Assembly (NCBI GenBank): GCA_031423805.1
Contig: JANPGE010000211.1
Span: 8,654-72,653, forward strand
Reading direction: 5' to 3'
Source: Segetibacter sp.
Lineage (GTDB): Bacteria > Bacteroidota > Bacteroidia > Chitinophagales > Chitinophagaceae
DNA: 64,000 nt
Below are positions 1-15,989 of the stretch, piece by piece (position 1 is the first letter of the stretch; the number at the start of each line of letters is the position of its first letter). Position numbers and translations under genes: made by a program. The notes below the pieces were generated by a model that was not told the DNA's origin, made no database searches, and saw only the letters and a list, made by a program, of their open reading frames with translations.

Positions 1-897
1 AGAAACCATTCTACAGGGTTAAGGAATAGTTTGTTACTAACGTATACAAAAACTTTAGAACACTATTTAAAGGCTTCTGCAAATACACAAAATGCAAATG
101 CAGGAAATAACATTGACAGAATTTTTTGGTGGTTATCACATAATGCAACTGACTATGAAGAAATAATTATTGATGAAGCTCAAGACATTGAAAAAGCAAG
201 GTTTCAACGATTTTTCAACTACTCAAATAATATATCGTATGGAGCTGACCAAAGACAAAGTATTTATTTAAACCCCGAAGGTTTAAATGAGTTACTAAAT
301 TGGTTCAATGCAGACCACAGATTTCAAGCTAACGTTCCAATAACACTAAGTAGAAATTTTAGAAATTCTAAAGAAATACTTCTATTTACAAGGTCTGTAT
401 TTCCAAATTTTATGATTCCTCAAAATACAATAAACGGAGCCATGACAACTGGTTTAAAACCAATTATGAAATTGGATATAGGTTGGGATATTGATGGACA
501 AGTTGACGCAATCATAGATATAATAACTGATTTTCAAAGTGACACACATAATATTACTATTTTAGTTCCAACACAAAAAATGGTAGAAACCTATTATAAT
601 GCAATAAGAGGTAAACTTGCCGAAAATATTGCTTTGACAAAGTTTAGGGCAGAAGACGATATTTTTGAAGGTCTGTCTGGAGTACATATAACACCATTCA
701 AGTCATCAAAAGGAACTGAATTTGACACAGTTATTATTCCAGAGTTTGATAGGTACAGGTGGTTTATGGAAAACGGACATACCGTTAAAGAGAATGACTA
801 TTACGTTGCCTTTACAAGAACAAAATCAAATCTGTTTTTACTTTGTAGAAATGGTTTTCCAAACATCGGTGATATAAATACCGTAACAACAGAATAA
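1..897 (+). CDS. SF1 (UvrD/Rep-like) helicase, C-terminal part; 5' end lies outside the window
   Basis: The frame is open from nt 1, with no in-frame stop before the listed start at 31. SF1 motifs appear in order: IIIDEAQD (II, nt 163-186), GADQRQSIY (III), LSRNFRNSKEIL (IV), FKSSKGTEFDTVIIPEF (V), YYVAFTRTKSNLFLL (VI). Walker A must lie upstream of the window. The DNA is AT-rich. Confidence 0.75.
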   Translation, partial: RNHSTGLRNSLLLTYTKTLEHYLKASANTQNANAGNNIDRIFWWLSHNATDYEEIIIDEAQDIEKARFQRFFNYSNNISYGADQRQSIYLNPEGLNELLNWFNADHRFQANVPITLSRNFRNSKEILLFTRSVFPNFMIPQNTINGAMTTGLKPIMKLDIGWDIDGQVDAIIDIITDFQSDTHNITILVPTQKMVETYYNAIRGKLAENIALTKFRAEDDIFEGLSGVHITPFKSSKGTEFDTVIIPEFDRYRWFMENGHTVKENDYYVAFTRTKSNLFLLCRNGFPNIGDINTVTTE

Positions 898-898
898 T

Positions 899-2749
899 AT
901 GAGTAACTCATTTTACATACCGATACATTCAATGAATCTGGCTCACTATTTAGGGAGCGGGATCATTGCTCCATCTATATACATCGAAAATAATAATGCT
1001 GACATTCAAGATGGTTTAAGAAATTATTTACTACTTAGTTCTTCCAAGTTCACAAAAGATACGAATTGTGCAATAGAGATTGTATTAAATACGGAAGAAG
1101 AAGCACCAAAAAAAATAAGCGAAAATTTTTATTTATTTGATAAGCCTTTACCGATATCAAGAATAAAAGGAATTTATTTTACAAATGAAGAAAAAAAAAT
1201 TAGTTCAAACTTCGATATTACATCTGGATCAGCATTTATCCCTGAAGGACTTTTAAAAGTATCAATGGAAGAAAGTATCGATACCAAGGAATTGGAAAAT
1301 ATAGAATACCAACCATCGGAAAGGAACTGGACTAATTTTTTAAAAAGATACGACCAAATTCTTGGCGGCTTTTCTACAATGAAAATAAGTAAAGAAAATT
1401 TTCAAAATTACCCTACACACTATTTTTCAACTTTAGGTAACATCAATAACTTATTTACTAATATTCTTGATAAGCAAAACATCAGTATCGAAAATAGCTT
1501 TCAATTTGCCTTTACTAATGAAGGGAAATTCAAGGACTTCCACAATACAATTTATTCCGAGATTGATTACAGTGAAGTTCAACGGTATGCAGAAAATGAT
1601 AAGGTTAAATTAGAAGTAAAAAATGGCTTAGTTCAAATAGATAAAATTTCAGAAAATACACAAACTTATCTTGTTGCAATTTTAGAAAGTTATGGCAAAG
1701 GCAAAAGAAAACAAGTTGATTCTTTTATTTCAGATTTAATCTCTGGAAAGTTTAATGAAAAGAAAAAAGAAGGCTTATCGTTAATTTTTGGATTGAATAA
1801 GGGCTATAAGGCATTTAGGAATAAGTATAAAACATCAAATTTTGAGGTTGATATTAAGTTTCAACTAAACAGTAAATTAGACTACTACATAATTGAAAGT
1901 ATTTATCAGAATATTTTTAATAATTTAGATAACATTAGATATTTTCCTTACATAGATGAATGGCTGATCACAAGTAAACAAGCTGAAGCAGTAAACCCTA
2001 GTTATGTAACATATCAAATGGTCGATAAGACAATTATTTGGAAGGCTAAAGTGCTTTCGCCAATTGAATCACTTCTTAATAATATTGTCCAAAAAGTTTG
2101 TAGTTGGTTTCCAAGCTTTATTCAAGTAAAAAAAAATGAAATTGAGCTCATATTTAAGGAAAGTATAGAATTATTTGTTAAAGAAAATAATGACGATATA
2201 ACCAAACAACTAAACGCTGAATTAAATCAAACTAGAGTAACATTAAAACAATTTAAAGCTGAAATTAAAGAAAGAGAGAGTATTATAATAAAATTAGAAG
2301 CTGAAAATAAAAGTCTGCAAAACTCCTTCAATGAATTAAAAAATAAAATTGATTCCCAAGAAAAACAAAATGCAAATGAAAACACTGTTATTAGTGATGA
2401 GATATTAAAAACTGAAAAACTAACTACAGACAATCAGCTTGATGATGAAATAAACAACGAAAATAAGCAAGAGCAAAAAGATGAACTTGTAAGTCTTTAT
2501 GAGATAAAATCTGAACCATTATTGGTTCAAGAACCAGTTAAATCAAAGTCGATTATAAATCACACTAACAATGGCAGTCTATTTGAAAATGATTCTTCAT
2601 TTCAAACAAATTTTAGAGAGATTGAATTAAACAAAAAAAGTATGAACGATTTGAGAGAGATTGCTAAAGACTATAAGATTCAAAAATGTAGTGCAATGAA
2701 AAAGGAAGTACTCATTGATACAATTTTAAAATACGAGATACAACAATGA
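899..2749 (+). CDS. Hypothetical protein: unknown N-terminal region, coiled coil, C-terminal Rho_N/SAP-like motif
   Basis: 616-aa ORF whose ATG sits 1 nt after the upstream stop (TAA-T-ATG). I recognise no catalytic motif in the first ~430 aa. It has a heptad-like segment (QLNAELNQTRVTLKQFKAEIKERESIIIKLEAENKSLQNSFNELKNKI) followed by a polar/acidic linker. The last ~40 aa (MNDLREIAKDYKIQKCSAMKKEVLIDTILKYE, about nt 2624-2746) resemble the Rho N-terminal/SAP helix-extended-helix motif. Confidence 0.6.
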   Translation: MSNSFYIPIHSMNLAHYLGSGIIAPSIYIENNNADIQDGLRNYLLLSSSKFTKDTNCAIEIVLNTEEEAPKKISENFYLFDKPLPISRIKGIYFTNEEKKISSNFDITSGSAFIPEGLLKVSMEESIDTKELENIEYQPSERNWTNFLKRYDQILGGFSTMKISKENFQNYPTHYFSTLGNINNLFTNILDKQNISIENSFQFAFTNEGKFKDFHNTIYSEIDYSEVQRYAENDKVKLEVKNGLVQIDKISENTQTYLVAILESYGKGKRKQVDSFISDLISGKFNEKKKEGLSLIFGLNKGYKAFRNKYKTSNFEVDIKFQLNSKLDYYIIESIYQNIFNNLDNIRYFPYIDEWLITSKQAEAVNPSYVTYQMVDKTIIWKAKVLSPIESLLNNIVQKVCSWFPSFIQVKKNEIELIFKESIELFVKENNDDITKQLNAELNQTRVTLKQFKAEIKERESIIIKLEAENKSLQNSFNELKNKIDSQEKQNANENTVISDEILKTEKLTTDNQLDDEINNENKQEQKDELVSLYEIKSEPLLVQEPVKSKSIINHTNNGSLFENDSSFQTNFREIELNKKSMNDLREIAKDYKIQKCSAMKKEVLIDTILKYEIQQ

Positions 2750-4221
2750 GTTTCATAAACAGGTTTTTTAATGCTTCAAATTCAGTAGAAGATCTAACAG
2801 CATTTACTCAAAATAATTCAATAGAAATTTATGACTTTTTCATAAGTCAGAAAAATAGTAGTATTTCAAATTATAGGACAGAGATAGAAAATTTCATCTT
2901 ACCCAAATATGGTATTTATAGTCATTTAGATTTTGAAGACAATAAAAACCAAACATTTTTATTCTGCCTATTAGATGTATCACAAAGATTCGGGCTTGCT
3001 TTGGAATTTCAACAAGTATATAATCTTGCAAGGCAAAATAATGTTCCTTTAAATAGTCGTCTAAATGCTTCAGCACAATTCCTAGTTGGCGTCAATTCTA
3101 TTAATGATTATGAAAATAGGATAAATGAAATTTTATCAAACTTATCTGATAGCTTTTTAAAAGAGGAAGATAACGAGCAAAAAACAATTGCAACACTAAT
3201 TCATTTCTACACAGAAGTTTTTTACAATTTTGGCTATCAAAACATAAGCAGAGTAAACGAATTTAGAAACAATTTACTTGAGCAATTAAAAAAAGAAGAG
3301 TATGGTTTTCTTTTAACGCAAAGTGTTGAAGAAGTTTTATCTTATTCTTTAAATAATGTTGAAGAGCTTTACCAAGCAGTTCATACTAAAATTGATGAAA
3401 TTTTAGAAAGAGCAAGTCAATATCTCGCATTTAATATTGAACCTCATTTAATAGAATTAGATGGACATTATGCTGAATCATTAGCTGGTATTTCAGCAAA
3501 CTTTAAAGAAATAAGAAGTCTTTGTGCTAATTTATATTCTGTAGTTGCAAGTAATGAAATTTTCTGGTCTTTGCAGAGAGGAGTTAAAGTGCTAACTGAA
3601 CAAAATCAACTTTTAGCATACTTCCATAGTTATGGAAAAATGCACCAAGCTAAAATGTTGAGTGCAATTAAACCAATCGAACAAAATGAATTAAAAGGAG
3701 AACTTGAAATCTATGACTGGGGTTGTGGTCAAGGTTTAGCTTCAATTTGTTTTTTGGAATATCTCAATGTGCAAGAAATTGCATATTCTATCAATAAATT
3801 TACACTAATTGAACCTTCTGAAATAGCAATTAAAAGAGCATCTCTTCATCTTAGAAAGTTTACAGCCGACACTCAAATAATTACAATAAATAAAGACTTA
3901 GACTCTTTAGAAAACAATGATTTTGAGAGTAAAAATTTCGTCACTAAAGTTCATTTGTTTTCGAATATTCTTGACATAGATTTGTTTTCTATGAATGATT
4001 TAATCCAATTAATTAAAAGTAATTTTTCTGGCAAAAATATTTTTATATGTGCAAGTCCATTTGTTTCTAGCTTTAAAACTGAAAGAATAGATGGCTTTGT
4101 TCAGTCTTTTTCTGATAAAACAAATTTTGAAATAATTTCTAATATTTCGCAAAAAAATGGTGAATGGCCTGGTACTAATTGGACAAGGGTTATAAGAGTT
4201 TTCAAAGTGAATATTTTATAA
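2746..4221 (+). CDS. Class I SAM-dependent methyltransferase-fold protein with ~320-aa N-terminal extension
   Basis: 491-aa ORF overlapping the upstream stop by ATGA (2746-2749). It carries SAM motif I EIYDWGCGQGLA (nt 3706-3741) and an acidic post-I strand FTLIEPSE. No (D/N/S)PP(Y/F/W) or PCQ DNA-methyltransferase motif is seen, and the N-terminal helical region has no motif I can name. Confidence 0.6.
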   Translation: MSFINRFFNASNSVEDLTAFTQNNSIEIYDFFISQKNSSISNYRTEIENFILPKYGIYSHLDFEDNKNQTFLFCLLDVSQRFGLALEFQQVYNLARQNNVPLNSRLNASAQFLVGVNSINDYENRINEILSNLSDSFLKEEDNEQKTIATLIHFYTEVFYNFGYQNISRVNEFRNNLLEQLKKEEYGFLLTQSVEEVLSYSLNNVEELYQAVHTKIDEILERASQYLAFNIEPHLIELDGHYAESLAGISANFKEIRSLCANLYSVVASNEIFWSLQRGVKVLTEQNQLLAYFHSYGKMHQAKMLSAIKPIEQNELKGELEIYDWGCGQGLASICFLEYLNVQEIAYSINKFTLIEPSEIAIKRASLHLRKFTADTQIITINKDLDSLENNDFESKNFVTKVHLFSNILDIDLFSMNDLIQLIKSNFSGKNIFICASPFVSSFKTERIDGFVQSFSDKTNFEIISNISQKNGEWPGTNWTRVIRVFKVNIL

Positions 4222-4577
4222 ATGTTATTTTTGATAGGATTTTCTCTCACATTGCCATAAATAACATTTGTCATTTCATAAAAAAACTTCACTAAAATAA
4301 TACTCGTCCTTACTAGGCTTGGTAAACAAAAGTGTATTTCAAAACCAAAAGGGCTCTTCCCCTCATCCTCCTCATACCTCAACCCCGATCCTTACAAATA
4401 ACTTTTCAACCTATATTCTCCCACCTTATCCGTTAATGATTTTCTTCGTGGCTGTTTTTAAAATCTGGTTTACTTGTGGTCGAAAAAATATTTTACACAT
4501 ATTAATGACTATTTCACAATCCTTCCCCAATCCCATCCTCTCTTAATTTGTGTGCAATGAATTTCAACCCCTCTCCC

Positions 4578-6977
4578 CTACCCAATTATCCTCAACTTAG
4601 CATAGTTCAGCATTATCTTCTTTTCGCCATTATTATCAAACATTATTGTTGCTATAGGGTTGTGTGCCGATCCTTCTACTTTGGTTACTTCGCCAAAACC
4701 AAACTTTTGATGTTCTACTTTCTGGCCAATCTGCAAATCGGCTGTATCGCTGGGAACAAAATCTGCACTGGGTTTATGTTCTACCACTTTGGGAGTAGTA
4801 GGTGCAACCGGCAAATAAGCCGGTTTGGCAGGGGTTTTAGTGGTGGTTTGTCCATACTTTTCTTCTACCCATTGTGCTTTGGGTTTAAAGCCGGTAGCTC
4901 CATTCATACGATCAAACGCACTTGTTCCAAAATCATCAAAACCCTGATTTCTTGCACCACCACCTGCAAAACCACGGTCAAGGTATTGGTCGGGCATTTC
5001 GTCTATAAACCGGCTGGGCTCATTTTTTACCAATTGTCCAAAACGATAACGGGTGTTGGCATACGTGAGCCACAAATTTTTCTTGGCCCGGGTAATAGCT
5101 ACATAAAACAAACGCCTTTCTTCTTCCAACTCTTCACGGGTATTGATAGCCATAGAGTTGGGAAATAAAGTTTCTTCTATCCCGCCTACAAACACACAGG
5201 AAAACTCAAGCCCTTTTGCAGCATGAATGGTCATCAGTTTTACCACATCACTATTTTCCTTATCGTCATCTGCATCGGTCAGTAGGGTAATTTGTTGCAG
5301 GTAACTACCAAGGTCACCAACATTTCTCTCTTCGCCGGTACTATTGTCTATTATCACAACACCTTCATCATCTATTTGTGATCGGTTTTGCACATCATCT
5401 ACCCATTCTTTTATTGAGTTAAACAACTCCTGAATATTTTCATAACGGGCAAGTCCTTCGGTGGTTTTATCGTTAAAAAGTTCTTTTACCAGATTGGTAT
5501 GTTTACCTACCTGTACTGCCACATCATAAGCGCTTTTGGTTTGCAACAGACTTTGAAAATATTTGATCATCTGCACAAAAGCCTCTACAGACTCTGCTGT
5601 ACCTGCTTTAAACCCAAACTCCCTGGCACGGGTTAACACCTGCCACAGACTTAATTTGTTTTCATTGGCAGCTATTACAGCTTTTTCAATCGTTGTTTTA
5701 CCAATGCCTCTTACGGGGTAATTTATAATACGCTTCAGTGCTTCTTCATCTTGTGTATTTACAATAATGCGCAGATAGGCAAGTATGTCTTTAATCTCCT
5801 TTCTTTGGTAAAAGCTTACACCCCCATAAATACGGTAAGGGATCCCCATCCGGCGAAGACTTTCTTCAAATGAACGGCTTTGGGCATTGGTACGGTACAG
5901 TATTGCAAACTCTTTGTTGTGAAAATGATTGCGAAGTTTTTGTTCCTGTATGGTATCAGCAACAAATTTGCCTTCATCATTGTCGGTCATTGTGCGTACC
6001 AACCTGATCTTTTCACCTTCCTGATTGTCTGTCCAAAGGTCTTTAGGTATTTGACCTTTGTTGTTTTTTATAACCTCGTTGGCGACATTTATTATGCTTT
6101 TAGTACTGCGGTAGTTTTGTTCCAGTTTTACCACTTTTACATCGTCGTAATCTTTTTCAAACTGCAATATATTTTCTATGGTAGCTCCGCGAAAACTATA
6201 GATACTCTGTGCATCATCTCCCACTACGGCTATGTTTTCATTAACTGCTGCCAACAGTTTAATTATCTGATACTGCACAGCATTGGTATCCTGATACTCA
6301 TCTATCATTACATACTTAAACTTGTGTTGGTACTTGTGCAGCACTTCCGGAAAATCTCTTAGCAGTTCATACATTTTAAACAACAGATCATCATAATCCA
6401 TTGCTCCGTTTTTAAAACAACGTGCGGCATATGCTGCATAAATCTGACCGATCATAGGTCTGTTGCTACGCATATCTTCTTGCTGTATATAGTAGTCGTT
6501 TTGATAATCAGCCGGACCTACCAATGCATTTTTAGCCTGTGATATGCGACCATGCACAACACTTGCCTTGTAGTGTTTATCATCAAGATTCATTTCATTA
6601 ACAACCGTTTTAATAACACTTCGGCTGTCGTCTGTATCATAAATAGTAAAATTGCTAGGATAACCCACTTTGGGGGCTTCGGCTCTTAATATTCTGGCAA
6701 AAACGCTGTGAAAAGTTCCTATATAAAGATTTCTTGCTTCATTGGTGCCCAATATTTTTTCAACCCGCTCCTTCATTTCTGCTGCTGCCTTATTGGTAAA
6801 TGTTAGCGCAAGAATGTTGAAAGAATCAATCCTGTGTGCCTTCATAAGGTGGGCTATACGGGTAGTGAGCACTTTTGTCTTACCACTGCCGGCACCTGCT
6901 ACAATCATTATTGGTCCATCTTTGTGTAATACTGCTTCACGTTGCTGCTCGTTCAGCTCTTTCAGATAATCATACAT
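4578..6977 (-). CDS. uvrD: ATP-dependent DNA helicase UvrD/PcrA (housekeeping SF1A)
   Basis: 799 aa with the full motif set: AGAGSGKTKVLT (Walker A), MIDEYQDT, VGDDAQSIYSFRGA, QNYRST, TIHAAKGLEF, YVAITRAKKNL. G+C is higher than in the neighbouring operon. Confidence 0.9.
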   Translation of the reverse strand: MYDYLKELNEQQREAVLHKDGPIMIVAGAGSGKTKVLTTRIAHLMKAHRIDSFNILALTFTNKAAAEMKERVEKILGTNEARNLYIGTFHSVFARILRAEAPKVGYPSNFTIYDTDDSRSVIKTVVNEMNLDDKHYKASVVHGRISQAKNALVGPADYQNDYYIQQEDMRSNRPMIGQIYAAYAARCFKNGAMDYDDLLFKMYELLRDFPEVLHKYQHKFKYVMIDEYQDTNAVQYQIIKLLAAVNENIAVVGDDAQSIYSFRGATIENILQFEKDYDDVKVVKLEQNYRSTKSIINVANEVIKNNKGQIPKDLWTDNQEGEKIRLVRTMTDNDEGKFVADTIQEQKLRNHFHNKEFAILYRTNAQSRSFEESLRRMGIPYRIYGGVSFYQRKEIKDILAYLRIIVNTQDEEALKRIINYPVRGIGKTTIEKAVIAANENKLSLWQVLTRAREFGFKAGTAESVEAFVQMIKYFQSLLQTKSAYDVAVQVGKHTNLVKELFNDKTTEGLARYENIQELFNSIKEWVDDVQNRSQIDDEGVVIIDNSTGEERNVGDLGSYLQQITLLTDADDDKENSDVVKLMTIHAAKGLEFSCVFVGGIEETLFPNSMAINTREELEEERRLFYVAITRAKKNLWLTYANTRYRFGQLVKNEPSRFIDEMPDQYLDRGFAGGGARNQGFDDFGTSAFDRMNGATGFKPKAQWVEEKYGQTTTKTPAKPAYLPVAPTTPKVVEHKPSADFVPSDTADLQIGQKVEHQKFGFGEVTKVEGSAHNPIATIMFDNNGEKKIMLNYAKLRIIG

Positions 6978-7148
6978 ACGGCGAAGTTACGACCTTCAAA
7001 TTTTCTTAAATGCCCTTTATCGTTCTGTTTAAAAAAGTATGGGCAAATGGTTGTTTTTTGTTGAAAAGCCTACACATTATAAAAAGTACTGCACATGCCC
7101 GCAACATAGGCATACTTTTTTTTAGTTTTAGTTACAAATTTCATTTAT

Positions 7149-7292
7149 ATGAAAATGGTTACACAGTGGTTAGAAGATGCGCTCAATGATGTGCAGCTTG
7201 AAAAAGTTGGTATTAAACTGGTAATGCTTGTAATGATAGTATTAGGGTTAGGCGCATTAAGTTTGTACATATTGCTTAATAGTCCTGCCTGA
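7149..7292 (+). CDS. Possible 47-aa single-TM small protein, below the ORF-track cutoff
   Basis: Hand translation gives MKMVTQWLEDALNDVQLEKVGIKLVMLVMIVLGLGALSLYILLNSPA*. It has an ATG start, one hydrophobic helix, and sits in an otherwise empty 317-nt gap. There is no homology evidence. Confidence 0.3.
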   Translation: MKMVTQWLEDALNDVQLEKVGIKLVMLVMIVLGLGALSLYILLNSPA

Positions 7293-7294
7293 TA

Positions 7295-8125
7295 TTATTT
7301 AGAATACTCCTTCAGATTTGCTCTTTCTTTTTTTGAAAGGCTGCTGATTCCTCGCTTATGAATTTTTTCGAGTAACCTGTCCAACTCTTTCTGTTTGTTT
7401 ATCTTATTAAGATTATATCTGTCTTCTACAGTATAGTTGTGGTGGTTTTTGTAAAAAAGATTATCAATCAACAAAGCCTGCGGTTTGTAAACAATAAATG
7501 CTATAAAAGCAATGGCTGGCAATGCAATAACAGCAATCGTAAAAGTATTGGTAATTAATATGGATGGAGAAAGTATGATTGCAAATAGTACACCCGCCAA
7601 TCCGCCGCCCAGGTGAGCATCGTGGCCTACATTTTCGCTACGTGAACGGATGCCGTAAATGGAGATAACAACATAAATTAGCCCAAACAACCAACCGGGT
7701 ATGGCCGGCAAAAAAAACAAACTGATATCCATACCCGGAAATAATGCAATGGATGCAAAAATCACCGCATTGATAGCCCCCGATGCACCTACACTACTGT
7801 AATCACCTGCAAAGCGATGAATAAAAAGACTCAACAGATTGCCTCCTAACAATCCTGAAATGTAAATGAGAATAAATTTTATTGGCCCCAGATAAGATTC
7901 TACGCCACCACTAAAAAAGATTAAAGCAATCATATTAAAAACCAAATGGGTCCAGTTAACATGCAAAAATCCTGATGTCATAAGGCGTTTGTAATCTTTA
8001 TGCACCAATACAGCATCAACAATAAATGAATAGCGGTCGTAAAAAAACTGATCCTTAAAACCACGGTACGACGTAACAACATTCATGATGATGAGAATGG
8101 TACTTATTGAGATAAATGGCATCAT
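7295..8125 (-). CDS. Rhomboid family intramembrane serine protease
   Basis: Motifs FLHVNWTHLVFNM (HxxxxHxxxN), GASGAINAV (GxSG catalytic Ser) and HDAHLGGGLAG (catalytic His). Multi-TM, with a cytoplasmic C-terminal tail. Confidence 0.85.
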   Translation of the reverse strand: MMPFISISTILIIMNVVTSYRGFKDQFFYDRYSFIVDAVLVHKDYKRLMTSGFLHVNWTHLVFNMIALIFFSGGVESYLGPIKFILIYISGLLGGNLLSLFIHRFAGDYSSVGASGAINAVIFASIALFPGMDISLFFLPAIPGWLFGLIYVVISIYGIRSRSENVGHDAHLGGGLAGVLFAIILSPSILITNTFTIAVIALPAIAFIAFIVYKPQALLIDNLFYKNHHNYTVEDRYNLNKINKQKELDRLLEKIHKRGISSLSKKERANLKEYSK

Positions 8126-8240
8126 TTTATGGTATTTAGTACTTAGTATTTAGACTGCTTCGAAATTAATATATTCAACATTGTGGTAACTATATGGAAC
8201 AAATAAAAAATTCTCAATTTTGTCAGATTGATCAGGACAT

Positions 8241-8269
8241 CAAAACAAAAACCCGCCGGTTGGGCGGGA
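8241..8269 (-). terminator. Rho-independent terminator downstream of the esterase gene
   Basis: On the minus strand, the stem CCCGCC / GGCGGG (8252-8257 and 8263-8268, 5-nt loop) is followed by TTTTTGTTTTG. It begins 8 nt after the stop of the 8277..9008 CDS. Confidence 0.6.
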
Positions 8270-8276
8270 ATTAGTT

Positions 8277-9008
8277 TTAAAATTTATTTTCCAAAATGTA
8301 TGGAAGCATTTTGCGCCACGTTGGCCAATCATGTTTTATATCCTGACCCCAAACATCCAAATCGCACCAAATACCTTTGTCAAAAAGTAGTTGTGCAAAC
8401 CTTCTGCTTGCATTAGGATCTTCATAATCGCCGCTGCCTGTATAGATATGTATGTGATGGCTTGCCTTTATTTTATCAAGATAATATTGGTCAGAAAGAT
8501 TGCTGATATAATGCTCCGGGCTGTTGAAGTAAACCTGATCATCCCAATAGCCTTTGGTGTATTCTGCCAGGTTATAAACACCACTCATAGAGATTGCGCC
8601 GTTGATCATATCGGGTCTTTTCAGAAATAAATTCATGGCATGCAGCGCACCAAAAGATGCACCACAGGTATAGATAAATGTTTCCTGACTTGTGGCGTTT
8701 CTGATAAAAGGAATTACCTCATTAAAAACATACTCGTTAAACTGATTGTGCCTTATAGCCTTGTGCGACGGTTCCATTTCATTATTCAACCAACTTTCTT
8801 TGTTTATACTATCTATACTGAACACCCTGCATTTACCGCTATCAATCAATGGTGCAAGTGTATCAATCAGTTGAAACCTTTCATATTCTAAATAGTCAGC
8901 TGCAGCAGTTGGTATTAAGAGTACGGCAAATCCGTAATGACCATAAGATGCAATAGGCATTTCTTTGTTAAGCGAAGGGCTGTACCATGAGGCTAATTCT
9001 CTTCTCAT
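8277..9008 (-). CDS. Esterase family protein (alpha/beta hydrolase)
   Basis: 243 aa with the nucleophile elbow GASFG in YTCGASFGALHAMNLF. Overall similarity to putative-esterase (esterase D-like) proteins is judged from memory. Confidence 0.65.
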   Translation of the reverse strand: MRRELASWYSPSLNKEMPIASYGHYGFAVLLIPTAAADYLEYERFQLIDTLAPLIDSGKCRVFSIDSINKESWLNNEMEPSHKAIRHNQFNEYVFNEVIPFIRNATSQETFIYTCGASFGALHAMNLFLKRPDMINGAISMSGVYNLAEYTKGYWDDQVYFNSPEHYISNLSDQYYLDKIKASHHIHIYTGSGDYEDPNASRRFAQLLFDKGIWCDLDVWGQDIKHDWPTWRKMLPYILENKF

Positions 9009-9091
9009 AATTGTTGTTTAGTTTTTTTTAATAGTTTGAATTGCAAGACAAAATAGTACATTTTATTTGTGCAGCAGTTGCAAATTTTTTA

Positions 9092-9835
9092 TCAGGCTAT
9101 TGTAAGTTTACTCAATTCTTTCCAAAGGTCCCTATAGCACTGTGCTGCATAGCTGCTTTTGGCATAGGAAAGTACGGGTGCAAGGTGTTGCCCCATTTTT
9201 TCTACATCGCTTAGGTAGGGTATATAGTTTTTGAGAAAAATTCTGTTTTTATACTCGTTGGTCATTACTTCATTGTGCAGGTTCTTTCTAAGGTCAACCA
9301 TGCTAAAGAAGCTTTTGATTTTTGAAACATCCAGGTTGTTTTGCTGAAAATACTCCTGAACGGTATCATAGCTGCGCATACTTAGCGTGGTAGGTATATT
9401 GGGAATAACAACCCAATCTGCTGCATGAAAAATATTGTCGTGCAGCACAGAAAGACCCGGCGGGCAATCTATAATAACGATATCATAGTCATTTTTAATT
9501 TCGGTTATTGCTGCTTTTATGCGCTTTTTCCCTTGCTTAATGTCAGCCAATACCACATCTGCATTTCTTGCCGACAGGTCAGATGTTATAATGTCAAGGT
9601 TATCATAACCCGATGGCTGAATGACGGAAGCCAAATCAAGTTCATTGGATAGCAGTTTTTTTGCGCCGTTTTTTATGGCAGCATCCATCTGAAAATAAAA
9701 ACCTGCTGCACCTTGCGGGTCTAAATCCCACAAAAGGGTACGCCACCCTTCTTCGGCAGCTAAATAAGCAAAGTTGACGGTAGCGGCAGTTTTGCCTACT
9801 CCACCTTTCTGATTGTAAAATGCATAGACTGTCAT
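9092..9835 (-). CDS. ParA/Soj-family ATPase with no adjacent ParB
   Basis: Deviant Walker A at the N-terminus (NQKGGVGKTAATVNFA) and IIDCPPG (Walker B region); 247 aa. Confidence 0.85.
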   Translation of the reverse strand: MTVYAFYNQKGGVGKTAATVNFAYLAAEEGWRTLLWDLDPQGAAGFYFQMDAAIKNGAKKLLSNELDLASVIQPSGYDNLDIITSDLSARNADVVLADIKQGKKRIKAAITEIKNDYDIVIIDCPPGLSVLHDNIFHAADWVVIPNIPTTLSMRSYDTVQEYFQQNNLDVSKIKSFFSMVDLRKNLHNEVMTNEYKNRIFLKNYIPYLSDVEKMGQHLAPVLSYAKSSYAAQCYRDLWKELSKLTIA

Positions 9836-10279
9836 AAATTAAAAATACATTTTTTTAAAACACCGTGTTTAGAAAATAGAGAATAAAATGCCCGAAGCGA
9901 ATGGGGTAGTAAGTATAAAAAAAGAAAATGGTGAAATAAGAGTTGGTATAGAAGGGAAAATAAGCAAACAATCGTTAGAGGCCGTTTCCAACTCTCATCT
10001 CACCATATATCAAAAAACTAATAACAACCGGCAAAGCCAATTATTATTCAAAACCCAAATTTCATATTGCAAAAAACTTAATCGTAGAGTAAATGAGTGT
10101 TGTAAAATACAGCTCAAAAACAAATGGCTAACAATCGTTAGTAAAAAAGGCAGCGCAAAGATGTGGTTTTCTATTGTAAATATTAAATTTCTGTGAAGTT
10201 TTTTTTGGGGGGGTACTTTATTATTGTGCTGGATGTAGTGTCAGGTTTTTCTTCATTAGTCGTAAAAATTACACTTTTA

Positions 10280-10293
10280 GAATTCGCGAATTC
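10280..10293. promoter_or_regulatory. Perfect 14-bp palindrome GAATTCGCGAATTC upstream of the giant helicase gene
   Basis: Read directly in the AT-rich 430-nt leader region. Function unknown. Confidence 0.2.
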
Positions 10294-10628
10294 GGAATTG
10301 ATGAGTTCCATTTAGGGGACGTTTGCAGACAAATGCTATACAACGAAAGACTAAACCGTTGATGTAAACTAAAATAATTTAATCTTTTAAATAGAAAAAT
10401 ATTAATTTTCTTGAATTCTAAAAACTTTTATTCTGAAAATGTTTCTGCGAAAACTCCTAATAGCCTGTTGCGCCATAGTTAATCTCTTGCATCAGACTTA
10501 TGAAAACACCCGGCTGATGGTGGCAAATAAACAACATCCTAATCGGTACCCTAAGCTTTAACACATTCAGTTTTAGCCAATACAAAAAACTAAAAGCACT
10601 AAATTTACCCAACGCACCACTAAACAAT

Positions 10629-13600
10629 ATGGAATTAACAGAGAAACTTTTAACTGAACTTCAAAGACGACTTAAAATTGGCAATCGCAGAGGCGTTCAT
10701 TTAAATGCTATTCCAGCAAATTCAAGGTACAAGTTCGACTTAAACAGACTTTCATATATTGAAAAAAATATACCCGACAATTTTGTAAAGGCTTTGCTTT
10801 CTGAATTACCACTTAAATTCAGAATAAGTTGGAAGGATAATGTGCCTGACCTTAACTCTCTTTTTGAAGAAGACCAAGCACAGTTAGTGAAAATTACAAA
10901 AGCGTTTGAAAATCTTATCAATCAAACTGAAGCAATAGAATCTGAAAAAGGGATAAATACATTTGGGTTTGGTTTTCCAATTTTAGCTAGACGAGATAGA
11001 GCCGACAATAAATTGACAGTTGCTCCAATTCTCATTTGGTCATTAAGAATAAAGAGAACCAAAGAATTCAACACTTGGGAGATTTTAAGAAACGAGGAAG
11101 ACCCGATTTATATTAATGAGGTCTTAATAAATCATTTACAGAGTGACTCAAATATTGAGATTGAACAGATACCAAGTGATATGCTTGACGATGGTTTAAT
11201 CAACAAGGCTGAACTTATAGAAATTTGTTCAAAGCTAATTAGAACTGTAAATACTACATCTCCCGACGATTTAGAAGAAACATTCAAAAGGAAAATTGAT
11301 AAAATTACATCTATTGGTGATAAAGCACATTATGATAAACTCCCATTAAATTCTTCAAATTCCTTCATTGACTTTGGTGGCTTATTTTCAATTTTTGAAG
11401 TCCAAAAGCAAAATATTATTAATGATTACGGCAATCTTTTGGAGCTTGAAGGACTTACTATTGACCTGGAAGACTTAGAAGGTCATACATTTCAACCGAT
11501 TTCATCAGTTGAAACAGATCCGTCCCAACAAAGCATTTTACATTCGTTAGAAACCGCTAGAAATGTTTTAATTCAAGGTCCACCAGGAACAGGTAAAAGT
11601 CAAACACTTACTGCAGTCCTTATCAATGCACTTGAAAACAATAAAAAAACAATTGTAGTCTGCGAAAAAAGAACTGCACTTGAAGTTTTGTATAATGCAC
11701 TTATTGAAAAAGGTTTAAACTATCACTGTGTCTTAGTTCGTGATATAGTAAAAGACCGCAAAACGGTTGTTGATTCCGTTAGAGACAGGGTTGATACTTC
11801 TGAATACAAACGCTACCGATATAATTATTCAAAAGAATCCTTGGATAACTTAGTTATTAGAGCCAAGGACCTAATAATAAACATCAATAAGAAACATAAA
11901 AAACTTGACAAAAAACTTATTGGCAATAAATCTTGGTCAGATGTTGTCGGTAATTTGTTAGCCGAAATAAAAGGAAATACTGACGATAGCAATTTAAACA
12001 TTGAAAGGAATGTATTTGTTTACTCCACACCAGAATTAAATACATTACTTGATCATGCTCAAAAAGGACAACCACTATACACCGATTTTCTCCCAATAGA
12101 ATCAACATCGTTTATTAATCCATTAAAATTAATTGGTGACAATCCGTTCTTAATTGAACAAAATATAAATGATGACTTTGATAATTATGCAAAGAAAATT
12201 AAAGAGATCAAACTTCTTTTGGAAGCAAATAGAAGGGAATTTATTATTTTAAGAAATACAGAATTGAAAGATCAATGTGCTTCAATTAGCAATTGTATTG
12301 AAAACATAAAAGCGAAAGAAAATGAACTGAGTATTTTGGTTTCAATTACTAAAGAAGATTATTACAGTTTTAGAAAAGCTGAAATAGAAAGTCAAACAAG
12401 GGATATTGAAGTTCAGATCGAACTAATTTTAACGAAAAAAGGCGAGTTTGCTGAATTGTTATCTTCCACAAAAAACGATTATTGCAAATTTAGAGATGAA
12501 GAACTTAACAAACAAATTAAAGCTTTTTCCGAAATAATTGATTCAATTGATACCATTATAAGCGACAATGATAATAACCCCAACTTGACGAACGAGGTAA
12601 AAGTTAACAGCCTGTGGTTTAAAATACTTGCTTTATTTTCTAAACGAAGAAAACGAATAATTGCTGACCAATCGAAGTTGCAAACCGAATTCAAAGAATT
12701 AAAAAAAACAGTTGATATTTCGAAAGATTTCTCAAGTTCAGATTTTGAAGGCGATTTAAACTCTCAACTTAGCAACTTGGGTATATTTAAGAAAACCTTA
12801 ATTAACGTCCAACAGCATTCTAACAGCAAAACTCAAAAAGAATTTGAATCATTTAATCTGTCAACCACATTAGAAATTAAGGATTTTAGCATTGTTTTTC
12901 AAGCTATGCAATCGGTAATCCAAAACTCTGACAATTCGGAAAGTTTGCACCATCCACTTAAAACAATTCAATCTAAATTCAATGATTTTCTAAGGGAAAC
13001 TGAAGCAAATTTTGAATTGCTATCAAAATATTTACTCAAATCAAAAGACATTAAAATAAGCCATCTCTTTGCCGGTTCAATAAATGAGAATTTAATGTTC
13101 CTTAGAGAGATAAAGGAAAAATTGCACTTAATTAAAATTGATTTTAACAATAAAATTGAAACCGAATTCACTTCTTTCAATCTTGACACAATATTGAACC
13201 CAAATAACAATAATAATTTTATATACTTCCAAGAAATAACAAGCAATTCCGAAAATTCAGTAGAATTCAATTCCAAAATCAAGTCAATTCAAACCACCTT
13301 TGAAAATTTTTTATCAGAACTAAATTCTACATACCAATCCCTTTCAAGGGAGTTAGCCGAAAGTAAACACATTAGGCTACATTACACCTTTGACAAAAAT
13401 TTTCAAGAAAACAAAAGAATTTTATTAGAAATAAAAAAACAGATCGAATTAATTAGTGTTGATTTTAAGGATAGGGTTCAAAGCGAGTTTCATCAAAATA
13501 TAAGTTTGATGAAAATAAATCAAAATGAAATAATAATAACAAATTTACTTCAAATAACAGAAGCTCTAATCTCCCACGACTATACTGAAAATAATAGAGA

Positions 13601-15989
13601 TCAGTTCCTAAATTCAGAATATTCAACTAGCTGTATTTTACTAAGGAAAAAGATATTTGAGTTATTAAACGATCTCCACTCAGATGATTGGACGCTTGAC
13701 AAAGTAATATTCACAGAATTCTACAAATTGATAACTGATGTTGAAACTCATATCCGTAATAAGACTGATTATTTCAAGGCCGAGAAAGATTTATTTACAA
13801 TTGAATTTAAGTGGTTTCAGTTTTACAACGGCTTGTCCGAAACAAACAAAGCAATTGTAAATGAATTAAAACCTAAAAGCAATTGGAGAAAGTCTTTCTT
13901 GGTCTATTATCTTCATTCTTTGCTCGTAAGTTCTGCTAATTTAGATTTGCCAACGAATGATGAAGAACACAAAGAACTTGACAAAACTTTAAACGGATTA
14001 GAAAAAGAGCAATTGAAATATATAAAAGAGTTTTGGTTTTCAAAACAGATAGACTCCACAAGAGAATTTGAACAAAAGAACTCCAACCTTTCGGTAGCCA
14101 ATCTATATAATAAAAAAAGCGGAAGTAGATTTAAAAGACTTTCACTACGACAAATTGTTCAATTTGACGCAAATCTCTTTACGAACTTCTTCCCTATAAT
14201 TCTTACTTCTCCCGATGTAGCAAGTAATCTGTTCAAAGGAATGAATAGCTATTTTGACATTGTAATGTTTGACGAAGCCAGCCAATTGCGTTTGGAAGAT
14301 AATCTACCAGCGATTTTAAAAGGGAAGCAGATTATCATTGCAGGTGATGAACACCAAATGCCGCCATCAAATTATTTCAGCAAAGTTTTTGACGGAGCGG
14401 TTGAAGATGAAGAAGATTTAGAGGAAGAAAAAGAAATTGTTGTTGACAAAGACAACATTTTGTTGTCTTGCGAATCTTTGCTTGACTTCGGTTCTGAATT
14501 AAACTTTCAAAGAAAGCACTTAGACTTCCACTATCGTTCAAGACATCCTTTTTTAATTGATTTTTCCAATTATGCCTTTTACAATCAAAGGTTAAAGCCT
14601 TTGCCAAATAACTTTGACTATGTGCCGATAAAGTATGTTCAAGTCAATGGCACCTTTTCCGAACATACAAATGAAGCAGAAGCCGAAATGGTTTTATCAA
14701 TCATTGATAAAAATATAAACAGATTGCCAAACGGAGAATATCCGACTGTGGGAATAGCGACATTTAATATTACACAGCGGAATTTGATTAAAAGCAAAAT
14801 TATAGAGCGGCAAAAGTTCTCAAAATTTGAAGAGTTTAACACCAAAATTCAAGAGTTAGAAGAAAAAGGAATGTTCATCAAAAACTTGGAAAATATCCAG
14901 GGTGATGAAAGAGATGTTATTATTCTTTCAACAACATACGGTATAGGAAAAGACAGAAAATTTGCTCAAAGATTTGGTCCAATAAATCATTCAAAAGGTT
15001 ACAAGTTATTGAACGTAATTATTACCAGAGCAAAGTTTAAAGTTTATTGCTGTTCCTCTATCCCAGAGCAAGTATTTATGAATTATAAAGAATACTTGAT
15101 AACAGAAGGTTCAAATAACAAAAGAGCAGTTTTCTATGCATATTTGGCATACTGCAAAGCGGTTAGCGAATCTAATAATGACTTACGTTTATCTGTCCTT
15201 ACAACACTTGCAGAAAACACAACAAAAAGTGCAGGTTTCGATTCATTCAAAGGAGGAGATTTAGAATCCCCTTTTGAAGAAGAAGTCTATCAAAGTTTAG
15301 CAGACCATTTAGGAACGGAAAAGTTAATTCCTCAATTACAGTTTGCAGGTTTTAGAATTGATATTGTTTATGACCCAAAAATAGTTGGAGTTTCTAAAAT
15401 TGCTATTGAATGTGATGGAGCAAAATATCATTCCAGCAGAGAAGCATATTTATATGACAGCCACAGGCAAAAAATATTAGAAAATCATGGCTTTGTATTT
15501 CATAGAATTTGGAGTACAAATTGGTGGCGTAATTCGAGCAGAGAAACTACAAAACTTGTTGACTTTATCAAACAAATTGAATCATCTTCAAATCCAAACT
15601 ATAAAGACCATTCCCATACTGCATTTGCATTTAGTGACGAGATAGTAATTATTGAAGACTATATTTCGCAGACTTCTTTTATTGAGATTGAAAAAGATAA
15701 CCAAACTATTGAGGCAATTGAAAAGATTGCTCCAATTCAGACAAAGATTTTTAAAGAAGAAGTAAAACTAAATAGTAAAGTACAAGTTAAATATATGAAT
15801 AACGGCAAAGACATGAATGTTCAACTTGTCTCGACAGAGAACAACAAAAACGATAATTCAAGCGGTGTTCAAAAAGTATATTACAAATCCCCTTTAGCAG
15901 GTTCTTTACTTGGACATACGGTTGGCGACATCGTAAAAATTGGCAACCTTGACAACTTTGTAGAAATAATTAAAATCACAAACGATTAG
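10629..15989 (+). CDS. 1786-aa DUF4011-type SF1 (Upf1/DNA2-like) helicase fused to a DUF559/Vsr-like endonuclease and a GreA/B-C-like tail (Hhe-like)
   Basis: Helicase motifs: GPPGTGKSQT (Walker A, nt 11577-), MFDEASQL (II, nt ~14265-), AGDEHQMPP (III), IQGDERDVIILS (V), LNVIITRAKFKV (VI). About 890 aa of helical, repeat-rich insert lie between Walker A and motif II. Restriction-endonuclease-like DUF559 core: FRIDIVYD...IAIECDGAKYH...HRQKILENHGFVFHRIW (nt 15264-15532). The C-terminus VQVKYMNNG...YYKSPLAGSLLGHTVGDIVKIG (nt 15771-15986) is like the GreA/GreB C-terminal domain. Confidence 0.85.
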   Translation: MELTEKLLTELQRRLKIGNRRGVHLNAIPANSRYKFDLNRLSYIEKNIPDNFVKALLSELPLKFRISWKDNVPDLNSLFEEDQAQLVKITKAFENLINQTEAIESEKGINTFGFGFPILARRDRADNKLTVAPILIWSLRIKRTKEFNTWEILRNEEDPIYINEVLINHLQSDSNIEIEQIPSDMLDDGLINKAELIEICSKLIRTVNTTSPDDLEETFKRKIDKITSIGDKAHYDKLPLNSSNSFIDFGGLFSIFEVQKQNIINDYGNLLELEGLTIDLEDLEGHTFQPISSVETDPSQQSILHSLETARNVLIQGPPGTGKSQTLTAVLINALENNKKTIVVCEKRTALEVLYNALIEKGLNYHCVLVRDIVKDRKTVVDSVRDRVDTSEYKRYRYNYSKESLDNLVIRAKDLIININKKHKKLDKKLIGNKSWSDVVGNLLAEIKGNTDDSNLNIERNVFVYSTPELNTLLDHAQKGQPLYTDFLPIESTSFINPLKLIGDNPFLIEQNINDDFDNYAKKIKEIKLLLEANRREFIILRNTELKDQCASISNCIENIKAKENELSILVSITKEDYYSFRKAEIESQTRDIEVQIELILTKKGEFAELLSSTKNDYCKFRDEELNKQIKAFSEIIDSIDTIISDNDNNPNLTNEVKVNSLWFKILALFSKRRKRIIADQSKLQTEFKELKKTVDISKDFSSSDFEGDLNSQLSNLGIFKKTLINVQQHSNSKTQKEFESFNLSTTLEIKDFSIVFQAMQSVIQNSDNSESLHHPLKTIQSKFNDFLRETEANFELLSKYLLKSKDIKISHLFAGSINENLMFLREIKEKLHLIKIDFNNKIETEFTSFNLDTILNPNNNNNFIYFQEITSNSENSVEFNSKIKSIQTTFENFLSELNSTYQSLSRELAESKHIRLHYTFDKNFQENKRILLEIKKQIELISVDFKDRVQSEFHQNISLMKINQNEIIITNLLQITEALISHDYTENNRDQFLNSEYSTSCILLRKKIFELLNDLHSDDWTLDKVIFTEFYKLITDVETHIRNKTDYFKAEKDLFTIEFKWFQFYNGLSETNKAIVNELKPKSNWRKSFLVYYLHSLLVSSANLDLPTNDEEHKELDKTLNGLEKEQLKYIKEFWFSKQIDSTREFEQKNSNLSVANLYNKKSGSRFKRLSLRQIVQFDANLFTNFFPIILTSPDVASNLFKGMNSYFDIVMFDEASQLRLEDNLPAILKGKQIIIAGDEHQMPPSNYFSKVFDGAVEDEEDLEEEKEIVVDKDNILLSCESLLDFGSELNFQRKHLDFHYRSRHPFLIDFSNYAFYNQRLKPLPNNFDYVPIKYVQVNGTFSEHTNEAEAEMVLSIIDKNINRLPNGEYPTVGIATFNITQRNLIKSKIIERQKFSKFEEFNTKIQELEEKGMFIKNLENIQGDERDVIILSTTYGIGKDRKFAQRFGPINHSKGYKLLNVIITRAKFKVYCCSSIPEQVFMNYKEYLITEGSNNKRAVFYAYLAYCKAVSESNNDLRLSVLTTLAENTTKSAGFDSFKGGDLESPFEEEVYQSLADHLGTEKLIPQLQFAGFRIDIVYDPKIVGVSKIAIECDGAKYHSSREAYLYDSHRQKILENHGFVFHRIWSTNWWRNSSRETTKLVDFIKQIESSSNPNYKDHSHTAFAFSDEIVIIEDYISQTSFIEIEKDNQTIEAIEKIAPIQTKIFKEEVKLNSKVQVKYMNNGKDMNVQLVSTENNKNDNSSGVQKVYYKSPLAGSLLGHTVGDIVKIGNLDNFVEIIKITND
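12840..13484 (+). repeat. Intragenic tandem duplication, two units of 108 and 107 aa, inside the helicase insert
   Basis: Unit 1 starts EFESFNLS (nt 12840), unit 2 starts EFTSFNLD (nt 13164), and the next segment starts SEFHQNISL (13482). Hand alignment of the last 68 residues gives 24 identities (KxIQ..F..FL.E...L.S.L..SK.I...F...EN..L.EIK..I.LI..DF). Confidence 0.7.

Follow-up and report, generated by a model that had tools for sequence, protein, structure and literature searches.

A stretch of 64,000 nucleotides (nt) from a Segetibacter species (assembly GCA_031423805.1, contig JANPGE010000211.1, positions 8,654 to 72,653 of the forward strand), referred to here as the window, begins with three co-directional genes that fill positions 1 to 4221 and are tightly coupled. 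They encode a superfamily 1 (SF1) helicase (ORF1), a protein that combines an ADP-ribosyltransferase (ART) fold with a second module and a Rho_N tail (ORF2), and a protein in which a helical domain precedes a methyltransferase (ORF3). An earlier reading of the same DNA, called here the original prediction, had singled out this trio as an AT-rich operon outside the named defence systems. What the window contains is the distal three quarters of an accessory operon with four genes; the remaining one encodes an AlkB-like dioxygenase, and the complete cassette is a horizontally acquired operon of about 5 kb. Across the family it unites five conserved activities: a dioxygenase and/or a radical-SAM-like enzyme, an SF1 ATPase, an ART, the second module of ORF2, and a methyltransferase that binds S-adenosylmethionine (SAM).

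Organization of the locus

A single nucleotide separates the ORF1 stop from the ATG of ORF2, ORF2 and ORF3 overlap by the 4 nt of an ATGA, and 356 nt lie between the end of ORF3 and the stop of the convergent housekeeping gene uvrD/pcrA (Table 1). These distances, and the count of 17 G+C in the 60 nt at 1021 to 1080, had been given in the original prediction and were all confirmed on the sequence. The low G+C is a property of the whole block, at 0.287 compared to 0.364 for the other 59.8 kb of the window. The lowest other segment of 4221 nt has a G+C of at least 0.308 (outside mean 0.363, standard deviation 0.018), and the G+C at third codon positions is 0.18 to 0.23 in the genes of the block compared to 0.36 in the neighbouring uvrD.

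Table 1. Features of the accessory block and of the DNA to its right in the window (aa, amino acids)
Feature	Position	Strand	Remarks
ORF1, helicase residues 47-344	1..897	+	Frame open from base 1; stop 895-897
ORF2, 616 aa	899..2749	+	
ART-fold domain 2CompART (PF22546), ORF2 aa 5-121	911..1261	+	E-value 9.3e-34; 116.6 bits against a cutoff of 27
2CompARG (PF22545), aa 144-311, with conserved extension to about aa 400 (ORF2 aa 144-400)	1328..2098	+	E-value 2.3e-41; 142.2 bits against a cutoff of 27
Linker, variable in length and sequence, ORF2 aa 401-575	2099..2623	+	Poorly conserved, many indels in alignments; rich in E, K and N
Rho_N/SAP-like helix-extension-helix module (PF07498), ORF2 aa 576-615	2624..2743	+	E-value 1.1e-7
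ORF3, 491 aa	2746..4221	+	
All-helical N-terminal domain, ORF3 aa 1-284	2746..3597	+	Matches no family in Pfam or PADLOC
Class I (Rossmann) SAM-methyltransferase domain, ORF3 aa 285-491	3598..4221	+	Assigned by Foldseek and motif conservation; Pfam methyltransferase matches weak
93-aa ORF	4101..4382	-	Shares 121 nt with the 3' end of ORF3
Spacer between cassette and uvrD	4222..4577	.	G+C 0.348; right-hand edge of the accessory block
uvrD/pcrA	4578..6977		Convergent with the cassette
Rhomboid-family gene	7295..8125	-	
Esterase gene	8277..9008	-	
1786-aa ORF	10629..15989	+	G+C 0.314; second most AT-rich stretch of the window

A compact SF1 helicase

Two Logan assemblies that encode an identical ORF2 (L001 and L002) reach 229 nt further to the left than the window. 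The original prediction had placed the 5' end of the helicase gene off the window, and it is indeed there; it amounts to only the first 46 residues, Walker A included, and the result is a compact protein of 344 aa and not a large helicase. The complete gene lies at L001:92-1126, and its product starts with MPYYFNLPL and has GGPGTGKS as its Walker A motif. Motifs II to VI, which the original prediction had recognized, are present (IIIDEAQD, YGADQRQ, LSRNFRNS, SSKGTEFD and VAFTRTK), and among 42 family members the Q motif and motifs I to VI are at least 95% conserved (GGPGTGK(S), DExQD, YGDxxQ, R167, KGxEFD, TR319). The protein matches UvrD_C, UvrD-helicase and AAA_19 in Pfam, the C-terminal region of HelD in NCBIfam, and the NERD+UvrD, GajB and reverse transcriptase-associated helicase models of PADLOC at about 1e-12 to 1e-15. 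With its Q motif and motifs I to VI, ORF1 is on its sequence an SF1 helicase of the UvrD type.

ORF2, a predicted ART fold fused to a second module

ORF2 had been taken for an uncharacterised partner, a description that does not apply if it is to mean a protein of no known family. It is a member of two Pfam families, scoring above the gathering threshold for both, and carries 2CompART followed by 2CompARG in one polypeptide that ends in a Rho_N module. All ORF2 homologues found carry both domains, and the two are fused in one ORF at 72 of 72 loci. No source publication behind the names 2CompART and 2CompARG ('2-Component system') was found in the literature searched.

An AlphaFold2 model of residues 1 to 400, built from 89 sequences, has a mean predicted local distance difference test score (pLDDT) of 75.9; in blocks of ten residues this score is 81 to 94 over aa 1-100 and 74 to 76 over aa 101-120. 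The top PDB matches of the ART domain in Foldseek were yeast Tpt1 (7yw4, probability 1.00, TMt 0.59) and DarT (7omw, probability 1.00), and further matches included several DarT structures (probability 0.99 to 1.00), CC0527, LT-IIB and the guanine-specific ScARP. As modelled, the N-terminal domain of ORF2 has the fold of an ADP-ribosyltransferase and comes closest to ARTs with nucleic-acid substrates. Among 45 diverse members, with identities down to 23%, residues D35, Q37, P85 and R88 of this domain never vary, and conservation reaches at least 90% at Y17, C57 and E60.

In the second module, G156, G298, Y303, K320, D328 and E333 are invariant across the 45 members. Neither fold comparison nor profile search turned up a PDB relative of the 2CompARG module, and ORF2 gave no Pfam match to the macro, ARH/DraG, PARG or NADAR hydrolases. 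Residues 144 to 400 probably form a second catalytic module. Sequence and profile searches of the PDB with ORF2, ORF3, the ART domain and the ARG region produced no meaningful matches, a Foldseek comparison of ORF2 with the viral predicted structures in BFVD gave nothing interpretable, and a search of PHROGs returned only a generic helicase family and Rho_N-like tails.

The original prediction had also placed a coiled coil ahead of the tail of ORF2. This was not demonstrated: residues 410 to 560 of the linker include only 2 Pro and 1 Gly, but a crude test for hydrophobic periodicity of 3.5 residues was not significant (p 0.15). The linker may be a long helix or a coiled coil. The Rho_N tail, which had likewise been predicted, was borne out by its Pfam match; its pattern, LKxIAKxxxI...LIxxIL, is kept in most homologues, and it is presumed to be a nucleic-acid tether.

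ORF3, a helical domain joined to a methyltransferase

The AlphaFold2 model of ORF3 has a mean pLDDT of 92.3 and consists of helices only up to about aa 310. The N-terminal domain is invariant at D30, R81, Y155, N161, N166, D217, E237 and Y242. For the methyltransferase domain, Foldseek returned METTL5, Bud23, CmoA, TrmI and HsdM, each with a probability of 1.00. The DWGCGQG motif at aa 324 and the missing catalytic tetrapeptide had both been recognized correctly from the sequence. Residues D324, W325, C327, G328 and Q329 (motif I), E356 (motif II), S406 and D410 are invariant; since ORF3 loci were retrieved by motif patterns that include DWGCGQG, the invariance of that motif is partly built into the sample. 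The (D/N/S)PP(Y/F/W) of motif IV is absent, the sequence after strand beta-4 being FSNILD with the invariant S406 and D410, and for want of this motif ORF3 falls outside the DNA N6-adenine and N4-cytosine methyltransferases. Its Rossmann fold, motif I and acidic motif II are those of a class I SAM-dependent methyltransferase, which ORF3 is, and it probably binds SAM.

Alternating enzymes upstream of the helicase

The original prediction had allowed for further genes beyond the left edge of the window, and there is one. On L001, a gene that ends 1 nt before the helicase ATG encodes the C-terminus (...ELQHFWQHQVPKTSQKVDERINLTFRVIK*) of an AlkB-like dioxygenase dependent on 2-oxoglutarate (2OG) and Fe(II), of which the last 29 residues are visible in the genome of the window (...HFWQHQVP...RINLTFRVIK). 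Its orthologue in Chryseobacterium indologenes occupies the same position (L003:1203-1838), is 211 aa long and matches PF13532 with an E-value of 7e-33. In 39 sequences H133, D135, H190, R202 and R208 are at least 95% conserved, giving the HxD...H pattern of the iron ligands and the RxxxxxR pattern of the residues that bind 2OG. In PADLOC, the model CARF_2OG aligns over its C-terminal half with the same C. indologenes protein (E-value 1.7e-57); this model describes a dioxygenase of this type fused to CARF sensors in CRISPR-associated genes.

In other lineages a DUF1848 gene replaces or joins the AlkB-like gene. One or both lie directly upstream of the helicase at 54 of 57 genome loci and at 39 of 41 metagenome loci. 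Among the 57 genome loci, 22 have the AlkB-like gene only, which is the type found in the window genome, 20 have DUF1848 only, and 12 have both, in the order AlkB-DUF1848-helicase. The DUF1848 protein is about 339 aa long and has a cluster of Cys residues with a CX3CX2C motif (CPHECVYC) in L022:4163-5182 and at 42 other loci. The spacing of this motif is of the radical-SAM type, and it lies near the C-terminus and not at the N-terminus. A weak NCBIfam match to the PA0069 radical-SAM family falls exactly at the motif, and the protein also matches the PADLOC model RTasDUF1848 at 1e-41. Because the AlkB-like protein and DUF1848 substitute for each other beside an invariant trio, it is suggested that they do equivalent jobs.

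DUF1848 was also met in another arrangement. Five IMG/VR contigs (L091-L095, at about 6800-13100) carry a DUF1848 gene followed by a giant ORF, the N-terminal part of which is an ORF3-like methyltransferase. The fusion partner is a superfamily 2 (SF2) DEAD/DpdF-like helicase in L091, L092 and L094 and an SF1 UvrD-like helicase in L093 and L095. This two-gene module, DUF1848 with a methyltransferase-helicase, is apparently undescribed. The partial ORF3 matches in IMG/VR were considered as UG25 methylase-reverse transcriptase fusions, and this was rejected, the proteins being methyltransferase-helicase fusions.

Distribution and linkage of the cassette

Relatives of ORF3 were found in 432 of 185,579 species-representative genomes (0.23%). 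The carriers are mostly Bacteroidota and include Flavobacteriia, Chitinophagia, Cytophagia, Sphingobacteriia and Bacteroidales, the last with Bacteroides, Prevotella and Parabacteroides of the human gut; a few outliers belong to Proteobacteria, Cyanobacteria, Chlorobi, Cloacimonadota and Clostridia.

Conserved co-occurrence of the three genes had been put forward as a check on the original prediction, and it was found from both ends of the operon. Eighty loci were fetched around ORF3, and their six-frame ORFs were compared with hidden Markov models built from the family; 66 of them had enough upstream DNA, and in 64 of these the helicase, the ART-ARG protein and ORF3 lie on one strand, down to 27-32% identity in ORF3. 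In the reverse test, which took ORF2 on 80 independent metagenome contigs as its anchor, the helicase came before ORF2 at 71 of 71 loci and ORF3 after it at 66 of 66. The coupling is likewise a family trait, with junctions mostly of -1 to +3 nt between the helicase and ORF2 and of -8 to +13 nt between ORF2 and ORF3. The helicase, ORF2 and ORF3 are thus very clearly an obligate, co-inherited unit.

A few loci depart from the usual form. L078:5537-9440 has AlkB, DUF1848, a truncated helicase and ORF3, and no ART-ARG gene. In L049, L081 and L085, ORF3 is split into at least two ORF pieces, as is the helicase in L081, possibly by frameshifts.

In 50,697 phage genomes no ORF2 was found. In the plasmid database ORF3 was represented only by partial matches to the methyltransferase domain on two Moraxella plasmids, and IMG/VR contained one full cassette. 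An origin of the cassette from phages or plasmids was rejected, given its near absence from those that have been sequenced.

Genomic setting

The uvrD gene of the window is 83% identical to that of Segetibacter and puts the organism in the Chitinophagaceae, close to that genus; a flavobacterial source, considered at first, was rejected on this ground. The cassette is absent downstream of uvrD in relatives in which this gene is 93% and 89% identical, and DNA homology to the closest of them (L098, uvrD 93%) ends at the uvrD stop codon. Among L096-L098, one has a DUF427 gene and a 905-aa gene after uvrD, and two have a PIF1 helicase, HTH_40 and rho. Since the relatives carry other genes at this point and homology ends there, the cassette sits at a synteny break. 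The rhomboid-family and esterase genes beside uvrD are syntenic with L098, and the right side of the block is therefore core chromosome.

The 93-aa ORF at the 3' end of ORF3 was called as a gene on Logan contig L002. It has no precomputed Pfam match on record and is probably a spurious call. It was considered as a remnant of the DUF427 gene, also 93 aa, that follows uvrD in L098, and this was rejected because nothing aligns past the uvrD stop.

The compositional bias of the window block recurs in the family. At 52 of 58 loci the cassette is richer in A+T than its flanks, with a mean difference in G+C of -6.0 points (Wilcoxon p 4e-10). The original prediction had called for a search for defence islands around homologues, and in many genomes BREX, restriction-modification (R-M), Hachiman and other defence genes are neighbours. 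A PglX-type methylase lies upstream of the cassette and PglZ/BrxL downstream in L021, L025, L034, L045 and L062. Type I HsdM and HsdR, the YhcG nuclease and Schlafen-AlbA2 proteins also adjoin it. In Elizabethkingia the neighbours are Hachiman (HamA and its helicase), GmrSD and SymE toxins, in Algoriphagus a TIR protein, and in Flavobacterium N1719 an integrase and an AbiEii-like gene; a PIN toxin-antitoxin pair is a further neighbour. When the 119 ORFs that flank the cassette most closely at 68 loci were surveyed with Pfam, the most recurrent families included the Eco57I, N6_Mtase and MmeI methylases, AAA_21, PglZ and TIR_2, together with KilA-N, RVT_1, Piwi, WYL and phage integrase. None of these was met in more than 6 of the 119 ORFs (range 2 to 6), and the census, which has no matched random control, is qualitative.

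Further along the window, the single ORF of 1786 aa shows motifs of an SF1B helicase of the Upf1/Sen1/IGHMBP2 type at aa ~300-385 and ~1197-1474. It is a possible further giant helicase of an accessory or defence kind.

Relation to known systems

The statement that the trio belongs to no named system still holds. PADLOC 2.0.0 gave matches of a generic UvrD type for ORF1 and none for ORF2 or ORF3, and neither its models nor any paper in the literature searched describes the multigene cassette. The domains of ORF2 are already catalogued in Pfam as 2CompART and 2CompARG. In the cassette the two are invariably fused and always stand with three or four other genes, an arrangement about which the names say nothing.

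DarTG consists of DarT, which ADP-ribosylates single-stranded DNA, and DarG, a macrodomain hydrolase, and is both a toxin-antitoxin and an anti-phage system. The cassette has in common with it a DarT-related ART fold and a putative eraser, a likely single-stranded nucleic-acid substrate, and a setting in defence islands. It differs in the fusion of writer and eraser and in its obligate partners, namely a helicase, a methyltransferase, and either AlkB or DUF1848. ORF2 gave no Pfam match to DarT or to a macrodomain, and no PADLOC match, and the likeness lies at the level of the fold only. Among known systems the cassette would work most like DarTG, while having none of its sequence-level features. 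Nor does ORF2 belong with Tpt1/KptA, since no winged-helix domain precedes the ART domain, which starts at residue 5, and R88 is its single invariant Arg, compared to the catalytic tetrad R-H-R-R of Tpt1/KptA.

The likeness to Gabija is partial. ORF1 matches many GajB models of PADLOC, with E-values down to about 1e-12, though over part of their length only; it is 344 aa long compared to about 500-600 aa for GajB, and no GajA (an OLD-type ATPase/TOPRIM nuclease) was found in the cassette at more than 130 loci. Among the defence-associated reverse transcriptases, UG25 and UG35 are fused to a methyltransferase, and UG25 associates with DUF1848 and UG35 with a UvrD-like helicase (Mestre et al., PMC9226505). 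These DRT-type systems of class 1 UG/Abi thus have methyltransferase, helicase and DUF1848 modules in common with the cassette. The RTasHel model matches ORF1 at 1e-12, and the likeness of the methyltransferases is one of module type. The cassette has no reverse transcriptase (RVT), and RVT_1 occurs in 2 of the 119 neighbouring ORFs. A methyltransferase of this type with a helicase and DUF1848 appears to be a recurring, conflict-associated module, from which the ART-ARG protein distinguishes the present family.

In eukaryotes the AlkB demethylase ALKBH3 is coupled to ASCC3, a helicase that supplies single-stranded DNA. The cassette resembles this pair in function only, its AlkB-family dioxygenase adjoining a helicase with which it presumably works. 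ASCC3 belongs to SF2 and the cassette helicase to SF1, and ALKBH3-ASCC3 has neither ART nor methyltransferase. None of the three proteins gave a PADLOC match to a signature gene of BREX, Hachiman, DISARM or Druantia; the BREX and Hachiman genes are neighbours only, in some genomes. The cassette itself includes no BREX gene, and most copies, that of the window among them, are not beside BREX; rather than a BREX subtype, the cassette is a passenger in a hotspot of BREX.

Possible functions

The joining of 2CompART, 2CompARG and Rho_N in ORF2 points to the probable effector chemistry of the operon. This would be ADP-ribosylation of nucleic acid with an eraser built into the same protein, alongside a methyltransferase that has AlkB or DUF1848 as its counterpart. 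The account favoured here is that the cassette is an anti-phage or anti-mobile-element system that acts by reversible chemical modification of single-stranded nucleic acid, and it is put forward tentatively, as a serious possibility somewhat short of probable. A single-stranded substrate is suggested by an ART fold nearest to DarT and Tpt1, by the obligate helicase, by the Rho_N tail, and by the substrates of AlkB, which are canonically single-stranded.

In such a system the ATP-driven helicase would engage foreign or replicating nucleic acid and expose single strands. Held there by its Rho_N/SAP-like tail, ORF2 would use NAD+ to ADP-ribosylate the exposed strand through its DarT/Tpt1-like ART, and this modification would block replication or translation of the invader. 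The hydrolase-like domain fused in cis would limit or reverse ADP-ribosylation on host molecules, as a built-in antidote. ORF3 would add a methyl mark derived from SAM, which could be a second lesion or else a self-mark, and AlkB, or the radical-SAM-like DUF1848 in other lineages, would strip a methyl-type adduct from host nucleic acid. The writers would then be the ART and the methyltransferase, with the ARG module and either AlkB or DUF1848 as erasers; the substrate, the directions of the reactions, the trigger and the defence phenotype are all putative in this scheme. A more specific form of it, and a rather unlikely one, is an immune system with two matched writer/eraser pairs, the ART with its fused hydrolase and the SAM methyltransferase with AlkB or the radical-SAM DUF1848. 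The helicase would again expose single strands of the invader, on which the writers would place ADP-ribose and methyl groups that block base pairing, and the erasers would clean the host.

Several observations weigh against defence by modification. The role is argued from gene context, the neighbour census was uncontrolled, and the one neighbour visible in the window is the housekeeping gene uvrD and not a defence gene; ORF2 and ORF3, moreover, match no PADLOC model. The conserved ART residues could not be mapped onto the H-Y-E or R-S-E triads, the sequence profile of the domain matched no solved ART, and Foldseek gave modest E-values (1e-3 to 0.2). For the ARG module, a hydrolase identity comes from the Pfam name only, and this part of the model has a pLDDT of 47 to 80. 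The closest folds to ORF3 are methyltransferases of rRNA and tRNA, and from the model a reaction of the RNA housekeeping type is possible. With AlkB and a radical-SAM-like enzyme, both of them classic in repair, the cassette would suit a repair role equally well.

One alternative, though an unlikely one, is repair, or 'counter-damage', in which the operon would mend RNA or DNA after its modification by toxins or phages. AlkB or DUF1848 would remove alkyl or other base lesions, the ART would act as Tpt1 does on 2'-phosphate or ADP-ribosyl ends, the adjoining domain would process the ADP-ribose product, the helicase would supply single strands in the manner of ASCC3, and the methyltransferase would cap or protect the repaired molecule as Hen1 does in Pnkp/Hen1. 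The conserved catalytic residues of AlkB, the CX3CX2C motif of DUF1848 with its weak match to PA0069, Tpt1 as the best match of the ART fold, and the RNA methyltransferases as nearest folds of ORF3 are all consistent with this, and the layout of ORF3, helical and then methyltransferase, recalls that of bacterial Hen1. ADP-ribosyl hydrolases have been proposed as enzymes of repair or of immunity (PMC11833690), which was counted here for repair. However, the N-terminal winged-helix domain of Tpt1 is absent, R88 is the sole invariant Arg of the ART, Hen1 is not among the top 50 fold matches of ORF3, and no gene for a ligase, a kinase/phosphatase or an RtcB-type enzyme is linked to the cassette. 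Pure repair, moreover, needs no writer-type ART and methyltransferase at every locus.

The repeated presence of the cassette between BREX pglX and pglZ/brxL, and beside type I R-M, would also suit a pathway that marks or hypermodifies the host's own DNA or RNA, a complex epigenetic self-mark alongside BREX or R-M, built up first by methylation, next by oxidation or radical chemistry and last by ADP-ribosylation, which the hydrolase would trim. The cassette has several modifying enzymes and no recognizable nuclease or membrane effector, and AlkB and DUF1848 alternate as interchangeable tailoring steps would. This explanation is doubtful, more so than repair: no partner that reads the mark or restricts unmarked molecules is consistently linked, the neighbours vary from genome to genome, ORF3 lacks motif IV of the DNA amino-methyltransferases, and systems embedded in BREX are usually independent defence modules. 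Least probable of all is a selfish, toxin-antitoxin-like addiction cassette that stabilizes its island with no anti-phage benefit, in which the ART and/or the methyltransferase would be the toxin and the ARG module, AlkB or DUF1848 the antidotes. Its writer/eraser composition, as in DarTG, its sporadic distribution and low G+C, and the toxin-antitoxin genes and integrases near some loci would be expected of such an element. Five conserved activities, one of them an ATP-dependent helicase, are nevertheless more than stabilization needs, and plasmids and phages, among which addiction modules are frequent, almost never carry the cassette. Since many systems of the toxin-antitoxin type are also anti-phage, this explanation overlaps with defence by modification.

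Significance

Should the cassette prove to be an anti-phage system, it would add a widespread mechanism of the Bacteroidota to the few immune mechanisms, such as DarTG and CmdTAC, that modify nucleic acids and do not cut them. A defence role would give a function to DUF1848 and to the 2CompARG domain, and would offer a rationale for the AlkB genes in defence islands. It would also explain why methyltransferase, helicase and DUF1848 modules accompany defence-associated reverse transcriptases. If two writer/eraser pairs are indeed present, AlkB-type 'repair' enzymes would be components of immunity, and the second module of ORF2 would represent a new ADP-ribose hydrolase fold.

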